64,000 nucleotides of DNA. Origin: Escherichia coli. Its GTDB lineage: Bacteria > Pseudomonadota > Gammaproteobacteria > Enterobacterales > Enterobacteriaceae. The stretch lies in the NCBI RefSeq assembly GCF_029227855.1, contig NZ_CP074357.1; one strand, 5' to 3'. This document shows positions 3,884 through 52,351 of this stretch, in pieces. The position numbers and the translations under genes were made by a program. How positions within the stretch are numbered: the stretch's first letter is position 1; every line of letters begins with the position of its first letter. The notes beneath the pieces were generated by a model. That model was given only the letters and a program-made list of their open reading frames with translations, was not told the origin of the DNA and made no database searches.

Positions 3884-4939
3884 ATGAACAACAGCAAACA
3901 TACAGTCATTGAAGTGGATACTAATCTAGTTGAAATTGAAAAGGGATTTAATCCCCGAGAGGCGGTAATCGGAGATTTGTGTTACGAACAAGAACCTGTC
4001 AAGTCGATGATTGTGTCAATCAAACAAGCCTTTAAGGAAGGAAGGCAGGTTGATATGATCAAGGTCGTAAAAAGAAAAGGTAAATATTTAGTTCGTCAAG
4101 GTCATACTCGTTTTCATGGCTTAAAATTAGCAATTTCTGAAGGTGCTAATATTCCAAAATTATCTGTTATCCTAATCGATTATAAAAACGAAATTGAAGA
4201 ATACCTTGAGAACCTCGATGGTAACAGAAGCAATGGGCTAAATCCGGTTGGGCAAGCTCATGCATTAGCTCATGCTGTTAGTCTCGGGTATTCGGTTGAA
4301 GAACTAGCAATGCGATATCAACGATCAACTACCGCAATTCGTAATATGCTAAAAATCCTTGATATGCCATTAGAGCTTCAACATTTGATTAGCCTAAATC
4401 TAATCAAAAAAACGCTCGCCATTGAAATAATGTTAAAATATTCCAACGATCACAAAATGGTTTTAAAACATATAGAAGGTTTCTTACCTGGCGTTAAGAA
4501 TATTGAGACTACAACGAGCAAAATTGTAGGCATACCTGAACACAATGCAGCTGGAGCAGGACCAGACACCTTAAATAAAGGCGGACCAGAAAAGAAAAAT
4601 TCGGCAGTCACTCGTAAGACTTTGGGTATTAAGCGCCTCTCGCATAAGAAAACAGAACGGCTAAAATCTGAATTTCTTGAGCTTGTGGAAAGTACACATA
4701 CGGAATCTATAACGAATACTCAAACAGAACTAAAATTTGGTAGAGATAGTGCACACTTGTTCAAAAATGTTAATAGTAATAATGTAATATTTTCCAATGA
4801 TGGTGTTCAAATAATCTTGAATGATGAAAAGCTAAATATTTTATTGTCTTTACTTAACGACGAAAATACAGCAATCATTGTTTCTAAACCAAAATTAGAA
4901 GAGCTTCTGGAAATTCGAGATCTCCTTAAGGAATATTAA
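3884..4939 (+). CDS. ParB/KorB-like DNA-binding protein (ParB N-terminal domain plus HTH), paralog 1
   Basis: 351 aa; GFNPRE and VRQGHTRFHGLKLA (ParB-box-like) then HTH SVEELAMRYQRSTTAIRNMLKILDMPLELQ; RBS AGGAGG. Confidence 0.75.
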   Translation: MNNSKHTVIEVDTNLVEIEKGFNPREAVIGDLCYEQEPVKSMIVSIKQAFKEGRQVDMIKVVKRKGKYLVRQGHTRFHGLKLAISEGANIPKLSVILIDYKNEIEEYLENLDGNRSNGLNPVGQAHALAHAVSLGYSVEELAMRYQRSTTAIRNMLKILDMPLELQHLISLNLIKKTLAIEIMLKYSNDHKMVLKHIEGFLPGVKNIETTTSKIVGIPEHNAAGAGPDTLNKGGPEKKNSAVTRKTLGIKRLSHKKTERLKSEFLELVESTHTESITNTQTELKFGRDSAHLFKNVNSNNVIFSNDGVQIILNDEKLNILLSLLNDENTAIIVSKPKLEELLEIRDLLKEY

Positions 4940-24487: not shown

Positions 24488-26908
24488 TTACTTCAACTCG
24501 TCGATCTGAATCATGAATTCTGAGGTGCCAACTTTCCCATTTTCGGAAGGATAAACGGGTAACAGAAGATTATCCCCCTGGCCCATATCTATTTGCACCT
24601 CAACTGACTCGCCTGGAGCCGCCTGTGCCCCATTAAATTTAATACCGAAGGCTGCATCCTTCCGCACAGTCAGCGTTGCGTTCTGGACCCCTTTAGCAAT
24701 TTCTCCATTTGTCTTACGCAGAACGTTAGTGGACAGGTACGCAAGTGGTACGCCATCTGTCGTTTTGAGAGGTGAACTGACCGACAATGTGCGTAGATTA
24801 TGTAACTGCACAAGGTTATTCGGTAGATAACTGAACTTCTGAGTATAGGTTTTGGTATTCGACTGACTATCGGCAACTGTTACGCTAATTGAATAATTTT
24901 CAGATGGTTCGAAATTTGGGAACAGCCTCGGATACTCAGGCATGTATGTATCTTTGCCTGCCGGTGACCACGTAAGCTCAACGTTATCAGCTGTGGGGCC
25001 ACCTACGAGCTGAAGACGGGTTATCCTCGGGGTTGTCAGATTATCTGCCAGAGCGATCCTGAGGTTCTCCAGGCCGTACACTACCGTATCGTCTTTTACC
25101 GGCTTTCCGTCGAATGTTATGGCCACTGTCGGAGGAGTGTTATCCAGAGCAATTTCTCCGAAAGTTTTATTGGTCTGGTTCTGGAAGAAGTCCCTGATGT
25201 TGACCTCAACGTTGTATTTTCCTTCAGACTGACGGGATAAATCATAAGCAATCGTGTAGTTACCTGAGATACGAGATTTGATTACGCCTGTTGGTGACAT
25301 CCGGGTACCGGTGTTCTTATCGGAAAGATAAAATTCCCTCAATGAGACCGAGTCGAACCAGTTACCATCGCCTTCAAGTGACGCCAGTACATCCAGCTGC
25401 TTGTTAGTCTCGTCATATGATATCGAGTTTATTACCGGCAGTTGTTTATTGTTCCAGCGTGTCATAATCCATTGCTCAGACCGCAAAATGGGATTGCTGA
25501 TGCTGCGAACGAAGTAAAGGATTCTATTGTAGCCCTGGGTACCCAAGGCCATATCAAACGTCTCAGGCGCTTCACACGAGGTTTTTCCTGCCGGAATGGT
25601 GCAGGTCGCCTTACCGCCGATCTCCTGTGCAAAGGGCCGGGCTTCAACGTTAAAACGAAGTCGGGAAATTTTAATTGGCAGTCGTGATGAAGCCACACTC
25701 TCAAAATCCTTCCACTTAACCCAGTTCCCCTTATCATCGAGGAAATCTACCCAGGTACCCGCAAATGCAGGCGTTTGGTTTGCAGATGGGTTTAGAACGA
25801 GGCTGTATGACGGATAATACCCTCCCCACTGGCCAAAGTTCGCCATACGAGCCATATCCCCATTAATTGAGCCATAGGGAAGAGTCATTTCAACATAAGC
25901 ATAAGTGCTGTCTACAGCTATCTCTTTGGGGGCGGAATATTGATTGATGAACTGAAGCCCACCTTCTGAATAAGCACGGTAGTTAGATTTTGGGATCCGG
26001 TAGACTAATCGAATAGGGTTTTCGTTAACGACCATACCGGCTTTGTAAGCCGGATAATTAGAAACCCCGGGTACGACGCTGGAAGACGTATTTGGATCAT
26101 GAACGGCCCACAGTGTCATCTCACCCAGCGTGTTGTCGTAGCGAAATTTTTGAGTTGGCAGCGTTCGGCTATTACCTGCGTTATCGAAGATAACAACTTT
26201 TGCAGTAAAGTCTTCATCCAGGTTGCTGTCTGGTATTCCGGTTCCCTTAACTGAATTCTTAGAGTAAGTGTGGTACATCTTTTGGCCGGATACGTCATAC
26301 TGCATCTGTGTAGTGCTGTAGAGGCTACCGTCCTGCCTGTAAATATATATTAGGCCCTTATCAATACCATTTGCATCACTTACGCCCGAAGAGGTGAAGT
26401 CATACTGCCCCGTTGCCTCTAATCCAAGCTTCCACACGTCACCAGCGGTAGAGCCAGAACCAGTATTAGCGGTAAGAGCATTTGCCGCTGGAGGGGTGAC
26501 ATCAATTAGCCAGTTATAGTTATAGGTCGCTACAGGCTTCTGATTGAGATCTAACACGTTTATCTGAACGACAAATTTGCCTTCACCCAAAGCAGGCAAA
26601 GTTACTTTTTTGCCGTAGAACTCACTACCGTCAGCAGCTGTTAGTCGGTCTGATACACCCGTCCGTGTAGTCGTAGTATTAAGAATGACAGTTCCAGTGT
26701 CTTTCGTGACTTTGACATTAACGAAACGATCAAGACCTGAAATAAGTGTCAAAGTTACCGGTGATGCCGGATTAAGCATAAGACGAGAAGACGGGGCGTG
26801 GATCTCAATACCGTTCGTGTCCTTAAAGGCCGATTCATATATCTGAGCTGGGGCCTGAACAGACATACCGAGTCCGGCTACAGCAGTAATAAAAGCGAGA
26901 TGTTTCAT
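24488..26908 (-). CDS. Large secreted Ig-like-repeat protein, paralog B
   Basis: 806 aa; signal peptide; LIDVTPP and ALDNTPPTVAI motifs; conserved C-terminal block. Confidence 0.7.
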   Translation of the reverse strand: MKHLAFITAVAGLGMSVQAPAQIYESAFKDTNGIEIHAPSSRLMLNPASPVTLTLISGLDRFVNVKVTKDTGTVILNTTTTRTGVSDRLTAADGSEFYGKKVTLPALGEGKFVVQINVLDLNQKPVATYNYNWLIDVTPPAANALTANTGSGSTAGDVWKLGLEATGQYDFTSSGVSDANGIDKGLIYIYRQDGSLYSTTQMQYDVSGQKMYHTYSKNSVKGTGIPDSNLDEDFTAKVVIFDNAGNSRTLPTQKFRYDNTLGEMTLWAVHDPNTSSSVVPGVSNYPAYKAGMVVNENPIRLVYRIPKSNYRAYSEGGLQFINQYSAPKEIAVDSTYAYVEMTLPYGSINGDMARMANFGQWGGYYPSYSLVLNPSANQTPAFAGTWVDFLDDKGNWVKWKDFESVASSRLPIKISRLRFNVEARPFAQEIGGKATCTIPAGKTSCEAPETFDMALGTQGYNRILYFVRSISNPILRSEQWIMTRWNNKQLPVINSISYDETNKQLDVLASLEGDGNWFDSVSLREFYLSDKNTGTRMSPTGVIKSRISGNYTIAYDLSRQSEGKYNVEVNIRDFFQNQTNKTFGEIALDNTPPTVAITFDGKPVKDDTVVYGLENLRIALADNLTTPRITRLQLVGGPTADNVELTWSPAGKDTYMPEYPRLFPNFEPSENYSISVTVADSQSNTKTYTQKFSYLPNNLVQLHNLRTLSVSSPLKTTDGVPLAYLSTNVLRKTNGEIAKGVQNATLTVRKDAAFGIKFNGAQAAPGESVEVQIDMGQGDNLLLPVYPSENGKVGTSEFMIQIDELK

Positions 26909-32326: not shown

Positions 32327-32460
32327 CTTGTATTTTTGCATTTACGTAAACAAAACAAGTCCCGCCGGGCAGAAAAGAAAAACATTAAAATTAGCTATTT
32401 TCCCGAAAAGATCTCGAACACTGAAAAAGTATCATGGGGAACCTGATCAGGAGACAACCC

Positions 32461-44288: not shown

Positions 44289-46673
44289 ATGTTTATTGAA
44301 AAAAGTGACTCATTCCTTGAATTACCCTCAGAAGTTATTTTTCCTGAGGCGGCTAATGCTGCCATTTTGAAACATGATAAATGGGCTGATGTTTGGGAGA
44401 CCCTGACAACCGATGCCGATCTGAACTATACCGATGAAAAGGAGACTGTGAGTCTTTCTTCTCTGGTCACGTCAGCCACATCTGCTATTTATCAGGCTAT
44501 TACGGACGGATGGACGATGTGCGTGGGATACAGTGGCGGTAAAGACTCCCATTCTCTTCTTCACCTATTTCTGATGGCATTGATCAGGGCAGTACGTAAC
44601 GGCACAAATATCAGCGAACATCATTTCATTCAGATGTCCGATACGCTGATCGAAAACCCTGAGATGCACTATCAGGCTTCACAGGTTCTCAACCAGCTTA
44701 GAATGTTCATTGCTGAACACCAGCTACCGGTCACAGTCCTTGTCGCCCAACCGTCTCTTACGCAGAGCTGGGTAGGCCGCATTCTGACTGGACGTGGACT
44801 TCCGACCTGGACTAATTCTTCAACCCGTCAGTGCTCAACCGACTACAAAATCGCCCCCCTGCGCAAGGCCAAAGCTCGTTATCTAAAAAACGCCCCGGCA
44901 TCCGTACGAAGCAGGGTATGCCTGATGCTGGGCTCCAGGGATGATGAAAGTGCCCGAAGGGCCGGAAATATCCTCAAAATGGGAGGGCAGGCGAGGAAAG
45001 TAACCCTGACTGAGCACGGTGGTGAACTCTATCCAGTAAAGGAGTGGCGCACTCAGGACATCTGGTCTTTTCTAATGGCCTGTGGTTCCGAATCCCGCTT
45101 CCCTTTACCAAGCTTTATGCCGGATAACTTCAGCCTGGCAACGCTTTATAAAGACGCCACCGGAGAGTGTATCTGGTCGCCGGAGAAACCCACGCGAACC
45201 TCAGCTTGTGGGGCTAGATATGGGTGCTCGCTTTGCACAGCCGTAGGGGTTGACCATTCAATGGAAACGCTCCTTCGCACTGACCCTGAGAAATATGGTT
45301 ATCAGGCAGGCCTAAGTCGTCTTCAGCGATTTCTTTCTAAGATCCAGTACGACTGGAGCCTGCGGGATTATATCGGTCGTAAAGTGTTCGAAGGCGGGTA
45401 TGTGCGTCTTCAACCCAATATCTTTTCTTCGTCCCTGACTGAACGTCTTTTTCATGTCTGTTGCAGCCTTGATTATGTTGAAGCCAGACGTGCGGCAAAG
45501 CATCGCAGAAAGCTACTTTCCGGCGAGGTGGACGATACGGCTTATAACCGTCGTATGGCTGAGCCACAATTTCGGCTTGTACATGAAGCAAACGTGATCC
45601 ACGTTGATTTCCTCTGGTCGTTGCACTGTTTCAACCCTCGCCCGTTTCGGGCAATTGAGATCTATCGCAGAGTCTGGGAAGAGGCCGATCTGGACCTTCT
45701 TGAGGATGAGCCTGACATGCTGCCTGTGGCCCGTACACCAATGCCAGCTCCACTCTGGATGAAACTGCCCGGAGGCCGGTTCGGTACAGCTTATGATGGA
45801 CTGACTGATACGTTGCCGCTGATGACCTATTTTGACGGGCAGGCTGACCCCAGGGCTTCACGTAGCCTAAAGACCGGAGAGAGCAGTTCTGTCGTCGTGG
45901 CATTCGAGGAAGAGGATGAGCTGACTGTTGAAGAAGATACGGCGTCCTGGATTATCTGGCATGAATACGACGGGTTACGCCAGAGCATCGCTGACGGTGA
46001 GTTTACTCCAACGACTGCTGCTCAGTATCTTCTTCGTTATGGCGCGGTCCGAATTTCAAAAGGGAAGGGCGCTGTCTATCATCGTCTCGCACAACGGGGA
46101 CAAACCTTTTCCCGCCTGGGGATAGGCGAAAGAGTGTCGCTTCCAGAGCTGGTTGCCAGTCGGCGTTTTAAAATACTCAGCGATACTGCATACCGTCAGG
46201 TTGTAGCCCGGAAATTGCGTGGACAGATAAAAAAGTTCAGATTCTGGGCATGCGTAGCTGCCTGTGTACAGTTGCACGTACACAACAAGACGGCACTCGG
46301 AGAAAGAATCTTAACGTTACTCGAAGGTGAGAGGGAACAGCAACAAGGTGCGATCCAGGCGAAGCTGAAGGCGGGAATGATGGATGCAGTTCTAACTCTG
46401 TGTAACCAGCGACTCCGGGTGAAAGAAAATACTAACCAGCCAGAGGAGTTCCGCTATTACCGTGCCGTAAGAGCTCGTTTCATGCGCCATTTATCTGAAT
46501 GCCTTAAGCCAGAAAATGGCGGCGTTATCCGTGACGTTATCTGGGAACTGAGGGTGCTGAGCAGTGCTCACGGTACGACCAAAACAGGTTTTTACTATGT
46601 CGATAGCAATCGCCCGACAGCGAAAGGACTGTTAAACCGCCTTCTGATGAGGATGGTCAGGCAGGTCGTATAA
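44289..46673 (+). CDS. PP-loop ATP-pyrophosphatase superfamily protein (PAPS-reductase / DndC-like) with long C-terminal extension
   Basis: 794 aa; PP-loop CVGYSGGKDSH; Cys cluster ACGARYGCSLC; C-terminal roughly 450 aa unassigned. Confidence 0.7.
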   Translation: MFIEKSDSFLELPSEVIFPEAANAAILKHDKWADVWETLTTDADLNYTDEKETVSLSSLVTSATSAIYQAITDGWTMCVGYSGGKDSHSLLHLFLMALIRAVRNGTNISEHHFIQMSDTLIENPEMHYQASQVLNQLRMFIAEHQLPVTVLVAQPSLTQSWVGRILTGRGLPTWTNSSTRQCSTDYKIAPLRKAKARYLKNAPASVRSRVCLMLGSRDDESARRAGNILKMGGQARKVTLTEHGGELYPVKEWRTQDIWSFLMACGSESRFPLPSFMPDNFSLATLYKDATGECIWSPEKPTRTSACGARYGCSLCTAVGVDHSMETLLRTDPEKYGYQAGLSRLQRFLSKIQYDWSLRDYIGRKVFEGGYVRLQPNIFSSSLTERLFHVCCSLDYVEARRAAKHRRKLLSGEVDDTAYNRRMAEPQFRLVHEANVIHVDFLWSLHCFNPRPFRAIEIYRRVWEEADLDLLEDEPDMLPVARTPMPAPLWMKLPGGRFGTAYDGLTDTLPLMTYFDGQADPRASRSLKTGESSSVVVAFEEEDELTVEEDTASWIIWHEYDGLRQSIADGEFTPTTAAQYLLRYGAVRISKGKGAVYHRLAQRGQTFSRLGIGERVSLPELVASRRFKILSDTAYRQVVARKLRGQIKKFRFWACVAACVQLHVHNKTALGERILTLLEGEREQQQGAIQAKLKAGMMDAVLTLCNQRLRVKENTNQPEEFRYYRAVRARFMRHLSECLKPENGGVIRDVIWELRVLSSAHGTTKTGFYYVDSNRPTAKGLLNRLLMRMVRQVV

Positions 46674-46922: not shown

Positions 46923-47162
46923 ATGCAAAATCAAAATACCCCCGCTCAGGAAAAACACACCGTATACCTTTTTAATGCTGAACATGCTGACAAGACAGCC
47001 GCCAAGCAAGCCGGGAAACTCTTCACGCTGGACATTGAACACCCAATGACCCTCAACGATCTCTCGCTGCTGTGTGAGTCGGTCGCGGACGCTGTGGGAG
47101 CACCTGGCGGTATTAAATATGAAATCACAACAGAGCCTAATGGGGTTCAGGAGGAATACTGA
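46923..47162 (+). CDS. Small conserved protein, family member 1 (paralog of 52127-52351)
   Basis: 79 aa; shared block D.E.PMTLNDLS.LC.S.A.AVG.PGG.KY. Confidence 0.6.
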   Translation: MQNQNTPAQEKHTVYLFNAEHADKTAAKQAGKLFTLDIEHPMTLNDLSLLCESVADAVGAPGGIKYEITTEPNGVQEEY

Positions 47163-47224: not shown

Positions 47225-47536
47225 ATGACTTTGAAAATGGGAAGTCCCCGGACTTCCAAGCCTGAGGGGCCATTTGTATTAATCACTTTTGAGGGGGACG
47301 AATTTCTTTTTGATGACAGACATAATGTCGTCAAGATAAATGGCAGGCCTAAAAAAATGGATGTAAAGCGAAATTATTTTGAGTCCGATCTGGGAGAAGG
47401 GAAAGCGAAATACTGGACTTTAAATATCGAAGAGGCTCATCGGTTCAATTCGATTGATGAAGCGACAGAACAACTTTGTAAACTGAATCGCCCTCATCTG
47501 ATCAAAATTCGCAAAGTTGAGGGGGTATCTGAATGA
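47225..47536 (+). CDS. Hypothetical protein
   Basis: 103 aa; RBS GAGG. Confidence 0.5.
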   Translation: MTLKMGSPRTSKPEGPFVLITFEGDEFLFDDRHNVVKINGRPKKMDVKRNYFESDLGEGKAKYWTLNIEEAHRFNSIDEATEQLCKLNRPHLIKIRKVEGVSE

Positions 47537-47721
47537 CCAAAGAGATGTTTTTACGCATTTTAAATGAGGCACAGGCTCGTGTGGATAACGATTCGCTTCC
47601 GCTTGATGTTCGTATCCGGTCACGCACCACGGTAAATGATTGCGTCATCCGGGCAGATAAAGAGGGGTGGCCTATTGAGTATAAACAGAAGGTCTGGGTA
47701 GAGGCAGTCAGTGGCTGTTAA
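47533..47721 (+). CDS. Hypothetical small protein
   Basis: 62 aa; ATGA overlap with the upstream ORF. Confidence 0.45.
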   Translation: MTKEMFLRILNEAQARVDNDSLPLDVRIRSRTTVNDCVIRADKEGWPIEYKQKVWVEAVSGC

Positions 47722-47781
47722 CTTCAGCGGTTACTTAAGCCAGCTCCTGTGCCCGTGAGATTAGTAAAGGCGGAAAATGAT

Positions 47782-48315
47782 ATGGTCAAGGTGATAAATA
47801 TCAACGGGAATTTAGTTGAGTTACCTGAGCCCTCAGCAAAGTTATCCAAAGCGGAATCACCTGATGGTAGGTTCTCAAAACCTAAAAATAAGATCTCTAA
47901 AATACAGCGAGCTGAGCTGCGAATGAAATTTGGGGGGCGTTGTGCCTATTGTGGTTGCAAGCTTCCTGAAAAAGGGTGGCATGCCGATCATGTTGAGCCT
48001 GTTCGACGCGACTTTGAACTGGTGAGAGCCCCGGTCGGCAGCGGCGTAACTCATGTTGCCCGAAGTACGGGTAAGGTTATGCACCCTGAACTGCATGCAA
48101 TAGAAAACTTATTTCCATCATGCGCTCCCTGCAACCTTTTTAAAGGAGCTTTTAGTGTTGAAGGAATGAGAAATGAAATTACCAAACAGGTTGAACGGGC
48201 TCGCGCATATAGCGTGAATTTCCGTACCGCAGAACGTTTTGGTTTGCTTCATATTGTAGTAAAACCGGTCGTCTTCTGGTTTGAGCAGTATAACGAACAG
48301 AAACAAAACGAATAA
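47782..48315 (+). CDS. HNH endonuclease-domain protein
   Basis: CAYCGC...WHADHVEP...N...CAPCN; start chosen at the ATG with RBS AAAGG (the ORF track begins at GTG 47749). Confidence 0.65.
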   Translation: MVKVININGNLVELPEPSAKLSKAESPDGRFSKPKNKISKIQRAELRMKFGGRCAYCGCKLPEKGWHADHVEPVRRDFELVRAPVGSGVTHVARSTGKVMHPELHAIENLFPSCAPCNLFKGAFSVEGMRNEITKQVERARAYSVNFRTAERFGLLHIVVKPVVFWFEQYNEQKQNE

Positions 48316-48426
48316 TTTCTCAGAGACATAAAACAAGTCAATCAACAGTGGTTAACCAATTAAAAAAGTCTATTAACTATTTTGATGCTGCTGAGGATCT
48401 GCCAGTTATATCCATAAAAGGAGAAA

Positions 48427-49038
48427 ATGATGTATCTGCATCTTGTGCCACGTATTCTTCACCATATGAAAAACAAGTGTACTCTCATGTCCGTGTCTGT
48501 CCCTGAATTGTCACTTGAGCTTAAAGCTGATTCGCTGGTGGCAATGAAACCCTATCCCAACAAGACCTACCACGTTGGCATGCTGAAGGGGCGACGAGCA
48601 TTAAATGGCTTTCTGGTAAAGAGCCCACGAACTTTAGCTGAGTTCACAATGATAACGCTCTGGGAAATAGACGGCTTTGGGGAAATTAGTCATACCGTAA
48701 AAACGCTCGTTCAGGACAACGACTATGACCTGGTCTCCCACGATGTCCTTTTGGCACATGCATACCATCAGACGGAGGAGGGATTGGGGTACCGTGTTCA
48801 TCCATCCTATGACAGTTTAGCCCCTGTCGATTTTGAGCCAACAATGCAATCCCGGTACATAAAGGAATCCGACCTTTCTCACGACGTATGGGAAACCTAT
48901 TCATGGGGGGAATTTCTGCGTTCGCGTGAAGAGACATTTCTGGCGATGACCATTTCTTCTTCTCGTTTAAACCACCCTGCATTTATCAGAGGAAACCGGC
49001 TTCCTCAAACTGACCAGGCCATCATTATTAGTTCCTAA
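48427..49038 (+). CDS. Hypothetical protein
   Basis: 203 aa; RBS AAGGAG. Confidence 0.5.
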   Translation: MMYLHLVPRILHHMKNKCTLMSVSVPELSLELKADSLVAMKPYPNKTYHVGMLKGRRALNGFLVKSPRTLAEFTMITLWEIDGFGEISHTVKTLVQDNDYDLVSHDVLLAHAYHQTEEGLGYRVHPSYDSLAPVDFEPTMQSRYIKESDLSHDVWETYSWGEFLRSREETFLAMTISSSRLNHPAFIRGNRLPQTDQAIIISS

Positions 49039-49097: not shown

Positions 49098-49116
49098 GCC
49101 CGGTAAGCCGGGCTTT
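49098..49116 (+). terminator. Putative rho-independent terminator
   Basis: GCCCGG-TAAG-CCGGGC followed by TTTGTCTATT. Confidence 0.5.
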
Positions 49117-52126: not shown

Positions 52127-52351
52127 ATGCATAACCACGAAATTCAGACCATTGCTATATTTAGTGCCCAGTATAAAAACATCGAAGATGCTGAAAATGC
52201 AGGTGCTTTATATTCTGTAGATATTGAATATCCGATGACACTAAATGATTTATCGCGGCTTTGCGACTCTATTGCCGAAGCAGTAGGTGTGCCTGGCGGC
52301 GTCAAATACCAGTTCGTGTCCCAGCCGGAAGCGCATGAAACCAGCTTCTGA
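52127..52351 (+). CDS. Small conserved protein, family member 2
   Basis: 74 aa; about 50% identical to 46923-47162 over the core. Confidence 0.6.
   Translation: MHNHEIQTIAIFSAQYKNIEDAENAGALYSVDIEYPMTLNDLSRLCDSIAEAVGVPGGVKYQFVSQPEAHETSF

Follow-up and report, generated by a model that had tools for sequence, protein, structure and literature searches.

The DNA analysed here is a 64,000-nucleotide stretch of an Escherichia coli assembly (GCF_029227855.1, contig NZ_CP074357.1), hereafter the window, which is the backbone of an IncHI2 plasmid. At positions 47,225 to 48,315 it carries two small open reading frames (ORFs), called ORF103 and ORF62 after their lengths in amino acids, followed by a gene for an HNH-motif protein. 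On balance, comparison of sequences favours the view that this gene encodes a free-standing HNH endonuclease of phage type which spreads horizontally, in the manner of homing or selfish accessory genes, and has become fixed in the IncHI backbone. The protein is very probably an intact HNH nuclease, and there is good reason to think that it is independent of the two small ORFs that precede it; that homing-like mobility is its biological role is a more tentative proposal. The HNH nature of the protein is already recorded in RefSeq, which annotates the block as three hypothetical proteins and an 'HNH endonuclease signature motif containing protein' (WP_000241454.1), and the architecture described below is not a new one.

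The motif that the original prediction had read from the sequence, CxxC...HADH...N...CxxCN, is present and, in the numbering of the 177-residue protein, comprises C54xxC57, H67-A-D-H70, N109 and C114xxC117-N118, including the two CxxC pairs of the zinc-finger HNH subclass. Nor is the motif degenerate, as that prediction had allowed it might be: the catalytic histidine and asparagines are kept across 70 relatives, and in the alignment of these 70 sequences C54, C57, C114, C117 and K121 are invariant, and conservation is at least 90% for D69, H70, N109 and N118. The protein passes the gathering threshold of PF01844 (22.2 bits against a cutoff of 21.4), with an alignment that covers only the first half of the domain because a beta-hairpin (residues 75-100) is inserted in the core, and it matches phrog_2118 ('HNH endonuclease') with an E-value of 2.2e-55. 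An AlphaFold2 (AF2) model built from the family alignment has a predicted local distance difference test (pLDDT) score of 90.2, and its structural matches are HNH nucleases only (Cas9 HNH, Cap5, McrA and Gme HNH). The fold is the beta-beta-alpha-metal fold, and the architecture consists of an N-terminal extension of about 36 residues, a Cys4-zinc beta-beta-alpha-Me core and a C-terminal helical region (residues 126-176). The closest solved sequence is that of the prophage nicking enzyme Gme HNH (4H9D; E-value 5.2e-7). We assign the protein to the HNH superfamily and to PHROG 2118, and all of the defining features that could be tested were found in it. Comparison with the IncHI1 orthologue gave a proportion of nonsynonymous differences (pN) of 0.147 against a synonymous proportion (pS) of 0.778, with synonymous sites saturated, and this difference indicates that the gene is under purifying selection. 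The family is large, since an exhaustive search returned 1428 cluster representatives at 50% identity, mostly of 120-150 amino acids and aligned to residues 37-172; 177 phage records match the protein.

By analogy with other HNH nucleases, H70 of the D-H dyad would act as the general base that activates water, D69 and N118 would hold the divalent catalytic metal, N109 would brace the fold or the hairpin, and the four cysteines would form a structural zinc site. The inserted beta-hairpin and the conserved C-terminal helices (R130, RFGL...VVFWFE) are the probable DNA contacts. With one active site per monomer, the enzyme would be expected to nick a single strand unless it acts as a dimer. The data show the integrity of the motif, the fold, the purifying selection, the distribution and the absence of a conserved linkage, whereas activity as a nuclease, nicking and homing-like mobility are inferred.

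Two start codons have to be considered for the gene, which ends at position 48315. The mechanical ORF begins at GTG 47749 and has 188 codons, whereas ATG 47782 gives the 177-residue protein. The latter is most likely the start, because the SD-like (Shine-Dalgarno-like) sequence aaaggcgga lies at the right distance before it, because RefSeq has chosen it, and because, in the IncHI1 orthologue, the reading frame is interrupted by a stop 11 codons before the corresponding start. No SD-like sequence was seen upstream of GTG 47749.

The original prediction had placed the genes on a plasmid, and this proved correct. The 1.5-kb block that runs from ORF79, a small gene upstream of ORF103, to the HNH gene is 95-100% identical in 983 plasmids of PLSDB; these are conjugative IncHI2 plasmids (MOBH/MPF_F) of about 200-370 kb from Escherichia, Salmonella, Enterobacter and Klebsiella. 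The base composition is unremarkable and thus gives no sign of recent acquisition. What did not hold was the expectation that the small ORFs would be conserved together with the nuclease. In PLSDB, matches to the HNH family are found in 2703 plasmids (IncHI2, IncHI1, IncHI1B, IncF and others), matches to ORF103 in 1200 (975 IncHI2 plasmids and 225 at 60-80% identity), and matches to ORF62 in 978, all with at least 90% identity, which confines ORF62 to IncHI2. Among plasmids, ORF103 is common to IncHI2 and IncHI1-type only, and in Klebsiella IncHI1B plasmids and the IncF tra operons the HNH gene occurs without either small ORF. The order in IncHI1 (pHCM1 and a related 244-kb contig) is a DndC-like gene followed, further on, by an ORF79 homologue, an unrelated gene of 232-234 codons, ORF103, HNH and DUF6012, so that the DUF6012 gene is syntenic with the HNH gene in IncHI1 and IncHI2. 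Identity between the two plasmid types is 79% for HNH and 60% for DUF6012, and for ORF103 it is 74% by BLAST against the 244-kb contig and 66% over the whole protein of pHCM1; ORF62 is absent from both IncHI1 sequences. In Klebsiella IncHI1B plasmids, the HNH protein is 61% identical, keeps the N-terminal extension and lies among unrelated genes, with ORF103, ORF62 and DUF6012 all absent beside it. Neither small ORF was present within 4 kb of the HNH gene in any of 80 sampled viral loci, and an HNH gene lies near only one of 18 viral ORF103 loci, 1.6 kb away and with several ORFs between. Because the linkage is not conserved outside IncHI2, the three genes do not appear to form one functional unit.

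Relatives of the HNH gene occupy many different positions in phages: the P22-like ea region, sites next to terminase, between DNA polymerase and helicase or beside ParB or methyltransferase genes, and the nin regions of lambdoid phages. The closest relative outside the IncHI plasmids is of the last kind. It is 80% identical over its full length, including the N-terminal extension, and lies at 3995-4531 of an IMG/VR lambdoid prophage contig, between an Ea22-like coiled-coil gene and NinB/NinG. The IncHI2 protein resembles this copy more closely than it does the Klebsiella IncHI1B orthologue, which implies exchange of the HNH gene between phages and plasmids. It also overlaps both of its unrelated neighbours. 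Since it is coupled to these as tightly as the IncHI2 gene is to its own, such coupling is a generic habit of the HNH family and not evidence of partnership.

A second setting is found in IncF plasmids, including pSLT, in which an HNH protein of 139-140 amino acids, 57-60% identical to ours, is encoded between trbC and traN, overlapping the start of traN by ATGA. The site holds the HNH gene alone in pSLT, a 123-codon Cys/His-rich ORF together with the HNH gene in pO26_10153_3 and pCombat2C1-1, and an unrelated reverse-strand ORF without HNH in pRM11060-2, where a search of the HNH-less trbC-traN spacer for an HNH remnant found none. This position in the IncF tra operons is a variable hotspot.

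ORF103 and ORF62 are, like the HNH gene, real genes and not chance ORFs. ORF103 matches phrog_30913 and has 46 cluster-level homologues in Enterobacterales; across 29 homologues 28 columns are invariant, and the proteins have the striking motif YFESDLGEGKAKYWT. Its AF2 model is of low confidence (pLDDT 63), the Foldseek matches of this model are meaningless, and no fold could be assigned. Relatives of ORF103 are found between DUF3164 and GemA in Mu-like prophages, and also in the early regions of lambdoid ones, although a tblastn search of GenBank phages returned nothing despite the relatives in prophages and IMG/VR. ORF62 has fewer homologues than ORF103; they are 62-67% identical by alignment, and they keep the N-terminal core MTKEM..I.NEAQ...D...PLD.R. 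Relatives of ORF62 that are 66-72% identical by BLAST adjoin lambda Kil or lie in the accessory region of another phage. In these prophage settings neither small ORF has an HNH gene beside it. Neither protein matched anything in Pfam, NCBIfam, PADLOC or PDB-sequence profile searches. The best reading of these two ORFs is that they are separate accessory genes of phage-early type, unrelated to the HNH gene, beside which they lie, and with which they are probably co-transcribed, only in IncHI2.

The scattered, non-homologous insertion sites of the family, together with its presence/absence polymorphism in IncF, suggest a homing-like or selfish lifestyle for the HNH gene. The cassette would have passed repeatedly between conjugative plasmids and the early or accessory regions of phages, and would have become fixed in the IncHI backbone. 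Among the roles that the original prediction had offered for a free-standing HNH nuclease, a homing endonuclease comes close to this, but the distribution in IncHI2 is not the sporadic one expected of such an element. The sporadic presence between conserved flanks is seen at the trbC-traN site of IncF and at the scattered phage positions, not for the IncHI2 copy. Several observations weigh against a selfish element. The repHI2 gene is found in 1125 PLSDB plasmids and the block in 983 of them (87%), or in 896 of the 968 that are typed as conjugative (about 93%), so that the block is near-core. The HNH protein with its N-terminal extension is kept across IncHI2, IncHI1 and IncHI1B at 61-79% identity, and this retention is easier to reconcile with a function that serves the plasmid than with an element that is purely selfish. 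Because of its near-core status and deep retention, the IncHI copy may also benefit its plasmid. In addition, the adjacency of ORF103 and HNH is kept between IncHI1 and IncHI2, which would allow a lineage-specific partnership, the protein has no recognisable sequence-specific DNA-binding module, and a literature search on the function of this HNH subfamily (IncHI2/R478 and the IncF tra operon) found nothing relevant.

A function of the kind just mentioned is the substance of the first alternative, which we regard as unlikely: that the nuclease is a plasmid-establishment or anti-defence factor, possibly with ORF103, belonging to a phage-early-like array that is expressed soon after entry, and that it attacks nucleic acid of the host, of a competitor or of a defence system. 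The HNH gene does lie in an array of about 24 kb, all on one strand and pointing toward Tra1/oriT, with genes for a methyltransferase, a DndC/IbrA-like protein, DUF957, DUF3085 and Hok, and this array resembles the leading or establishment region of a plasmid. The mobI-mobH-traD operon, however, is situated between the array and the presumed oriT. Homologues of all three genes occur in the early or accessory regions of phages, where anti-host functions cluster, but the IncF homologues are in the late-entering tra operon and not in a leading region. Conservation between IncHI2 and IncHI1-type plasmids is greatest for HNH (79%) and the DndC-like protein (77%), the neighbours ranging from 51 to 74%. 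Also in its favour, a preprint reports finding no complete known anti-defence system in PTU-HI1A plasmids. On the other side, there was no anti-defence family among the Pfam, NCBIfam and PHROGs matches, and PADLOC, which covers defence systems, gave only sub-threshold PtuB-like hits; no dedicated anti-defence library was searched. Moreover, 72 conjugative-typed plasmids carry repHI2 and lack the block. Less likely again is a more elaborate form of this explanation, in which the N-terminally extended HNH proteins of IncHI2, IncHI1, IncHI1B and some lambdoid prophages would be a domesticated nuclease for establishment or competition between elements, with ORF103 as a lineage-specific partner and the 24-kb array as an establishment and anti-defence region.

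It is improbable that the three genes form one module in which an HNH effector or toxin is controlled by the small proteins as immunity, regulator or specificity subunits. The original prediction had described a tightly coupled three-gene operon, and part of that description stands. Both small ORFs were confirmed in the ORF listing and in the raw sequence, the ATG of ORF62 (47533-47535) overlapping the TGA of ORF103 (47534-47536). The gap between ORF62 and HNH is 60 nucleotides, however, and the transcription unit is likely to be wider, from ORF79 or ORF103 through DUF6012. The coupling of the small ORFs, the short gaps on one strand with no terminator-like site between the genes, the 95-100% conservation of the block in 983 plasmids and the persistence of the ORF103-HNH pair in IncHI1 and IncHI2 are what a module would be expected to display. 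The loss of linkage outside IncHI2 and the equally tight overlap of the 80%-identical nin-region gene with unrelated flanking genes argue against it. So do the profile scores, which leave the small defence system of the original prediction without a match: PADLOC and NCBIfam gave hits to PtuB (17.1 against 150 bits) and TIGR02646 (21.6 against 52.15 bits) that are far under the cutoffs, and no partner ATPase was found.

Very improbable is a role in conjugation or packaging as an accessory enzyme that processes DNA, in which the protein would assist a relaxase or terminase by nicking, in the manner of the HK97 gp74-type HNH protein that assists terminase: homologues do lie inside IncF tra operons, translationally coupled to traN, some phage homologues (56-57% identical) are directly beside terminase at a genome end, the nearest solved relative is the nicking enzyme Gme HNH and the IncHI copy is within about 20-30 kb of Tra1, but most homologues are away from terminase or transfer genes, at least one IncF-type plasmid, pRM11060-2, has no HNH gene, trbC adjoins traN in classical F, the IncHI2 gene is outside both Tra1 and Tra2, and the 72 repHI2 plasmids without the block are still typed as conjugative.

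The IncHI2 plasmids are important vehicles of mcr, bla and genes for heavy-metal resistance, and much of their backbone of about 200 kb is unannotated, including a long array of small genes. An intact and selected nuclease of phage derivation is useful for the annotation of this array, and it points to a single gene rather than to a three-gene system. Our analysis maps the distribution of the gene and does away with a speculative system, and no new mechanism emerges from it. The result would have greater weight if the nuclease does act in plasmid establishment or in conflict between elements.

Among known proteins, the phage HNH proteins of PHROG 2118 are the most similar to the one described here. 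Those of Salmonella phage BIS08P22 (UWV16638.1), Edwardsiella phage eiAU (gp20) and Escherichia phage Bas77 (gp1) are 55-64% identical over residues of about 30-177, with the same Cys4 zinc site, D-H...N...N pattern, beta-hairpin insertion and C-terminal helices. The family consists of small (about 135-180 amino acids), free-standing HNH proteins of phages and plasmids, and no biochemically characterised phage member was found. In most phage members the N-terminal extension of about 36 residues is absent or other N-terminal regions are present, and the plasmid copy differs from them in being part of a conjugative-plasmid backbone. The IncF proteins (pSLT WP_001229397.1; WP_001229309.1) belong to the same subfamily, with their identity of 57-60% extending over residues 38-175. 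Like the IncHI2 protein they are encoded on conjugative enterobacterial plasmids and are tightly coupled to the following gene; unlike it they are short forms without the N-terminal extension, variably present inside the tra operon. Gme HNH (4H9D) and GVE2 HNH (5H0O) are more distant, being proteins of about 100 residues that have neither the hairpin insertion nor the C-terminal helical region nor the N-terminal extension, and they are terminase-associated, in contrast to the IncHI2 protein. The HNH domains of Cas9 and McrA type are 16-23% identical and are parts of large multidomain enzymes, RNA-guided or modification-dependent, whereas the IncHI2 protein has neither a guide nor a reader domain.

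Three other identities were rejected. Effectors of Septu PtuB or retron type (TIGR02646, NF041761) are matched weakly, at the level of the motif, by the first half of the protein, but it is the generic HNH motif that drives these matches, and the neighbours are ORF79, ORF103, ORF62 and DUF6012, with no PtuA ATPase or retron adjacent; a search of the whole window against Rfam found no RNA family. For T4 endonuclease VII (PF02945), the protein does not combine a profile score above threshold with close structural similarity. A terminase-associated packaging HNH of the HK97 gp74 type does not agree with a plasmid context without terminase, and only some of the phage homologues are beside terminase.

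The features of the locus are collected in Table 1. Every gene of the cluster from ORF79 to DUF6012 is preceded by an SD-like sequence, and the spacing is 62 nucleotides between ORF79 and ORF103, an overlap of four between ORF103 and ORF62, and 111 between HNH and DUF6012. The transcription unit is considered wider than three genes because ORF79, which is possibly its first gene, is co-oriented and lies shortly before ORF103, because DUF6012 follows HNH in the same orientation, and because the first terminator-like hairpin lies past DUF6012. This hairpin was found as a consensus match only; in the promoter and terminator scans, sites were no more numerous than in shuffled sequence.

Table 1. 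Genes and other features of the ORF79-DUF6012 cluster, in positions of the window.
Feature	Position	Strand	Remarks
ORF79, small hypothetical (WP_001180999.1)	46923-47162	+	SD-like aaaagga
ORF103, conserved, phrog_30913 family	47225-47536	+	E-value 2.8e-38; relatives in prophage early regions
ORF62, small conserved protein	47533-47721	+	Start overlaps ORF103 stop (ATGA)
HNH endonuclease, 177 amino acids (WP_000241454.1)	47782-48315	+	PF01844, phrog_2118, AF2; alternative start GTG 47749
DUF6012 family gene	48427-49038	+	PF19475, E-value 1.1e-33; co-oriented, 111 nucleotides past HNH
GC-rich hairpin GCCCGG-TAAG-CCGGGC, then T-run	49098-49113		Consensus match; first terminator-like site downstream

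The 32 nucleotides before the HNH start (47750-47781) are 72% identical to the stretch before the DUF6012 start (48400-48431), with the common pattern TGCC.GT.A.AT...TAAA.G.GAAAATGAT; this may be an element of translation initiation or regulation, or a chance likeness. A scan for repeats found short matches only, which are probably due to chance. ORF79 is 70% identical to its IncHI1-type orthologue, and it has a paralogue (51% identity over 63 amino acids) further along the array, some 5 kb downstream, at 52127-52351 on the plus strand; both copies are also present in an IncHI1-type plasmid.

Between IncHI2 sublineages the accessory array has diverged further than the replicon: the block splits into two identity groups (576 plasmids at 99% or more and 407 at 95-99%), whereas 1123 of the 1125 plasmids have repHI2 at 99% identity or more. 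The 142 repHI2 plasmids without the block are enriched in non-mobilizable ones (70 of 157, against 72 of 968 conjugative). The array itself, at about 32.2-56.5 kb of the window, comprises some 40 consecutive annotated genes other than those of insertion sequences, all on the plus strand. Among its contents are a site-specific DNA methyltransferase (39855-41105), a RelE/ParE toxin, DUF957, DUF3085 and a Hok toxin (56442-56561), and it points toward Tra1 (mobI, mobH relaxase, traD), which starts a few kb past the end of the window.

Within the array, at 44289-46673 on the plus strand, is a stand-alone gene for a 794-residue DndC/IbrA-like protein of the PAPS-reductase family. Its matches to PADLOC DndC (E-value 4e-38) and NCBIfam PRK06850 (E-value 1.2e-37) are far below the cutoffs, and no DndA, DndB, DndD or DndE neighbours are annotated beside it. 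It is among the best conserved proteins of the block, 77% identical to its IncHI1-type orthologue, and may serve the plasmid as a DNA-modification enzyme.

Elsewhere in the window, three large genes for Ig-like-domain proteins of about 800 residues, at 16370-18826 (plus strand), 24488-26908 (minus strand) and 32434-34851 (plus strand), flank the RepHI2 gene (19934-21022). A second HNH-motif protein, of unrelated size (429 amino acids, WP_001284752.1), is encoded outside the window, at 181845-183134 of the pSTM6-275 record, where it adjoins a conjugal transfer gene with a TraG N-terminal domain (WP_000386159.1) in the IncHI2 transfer region.

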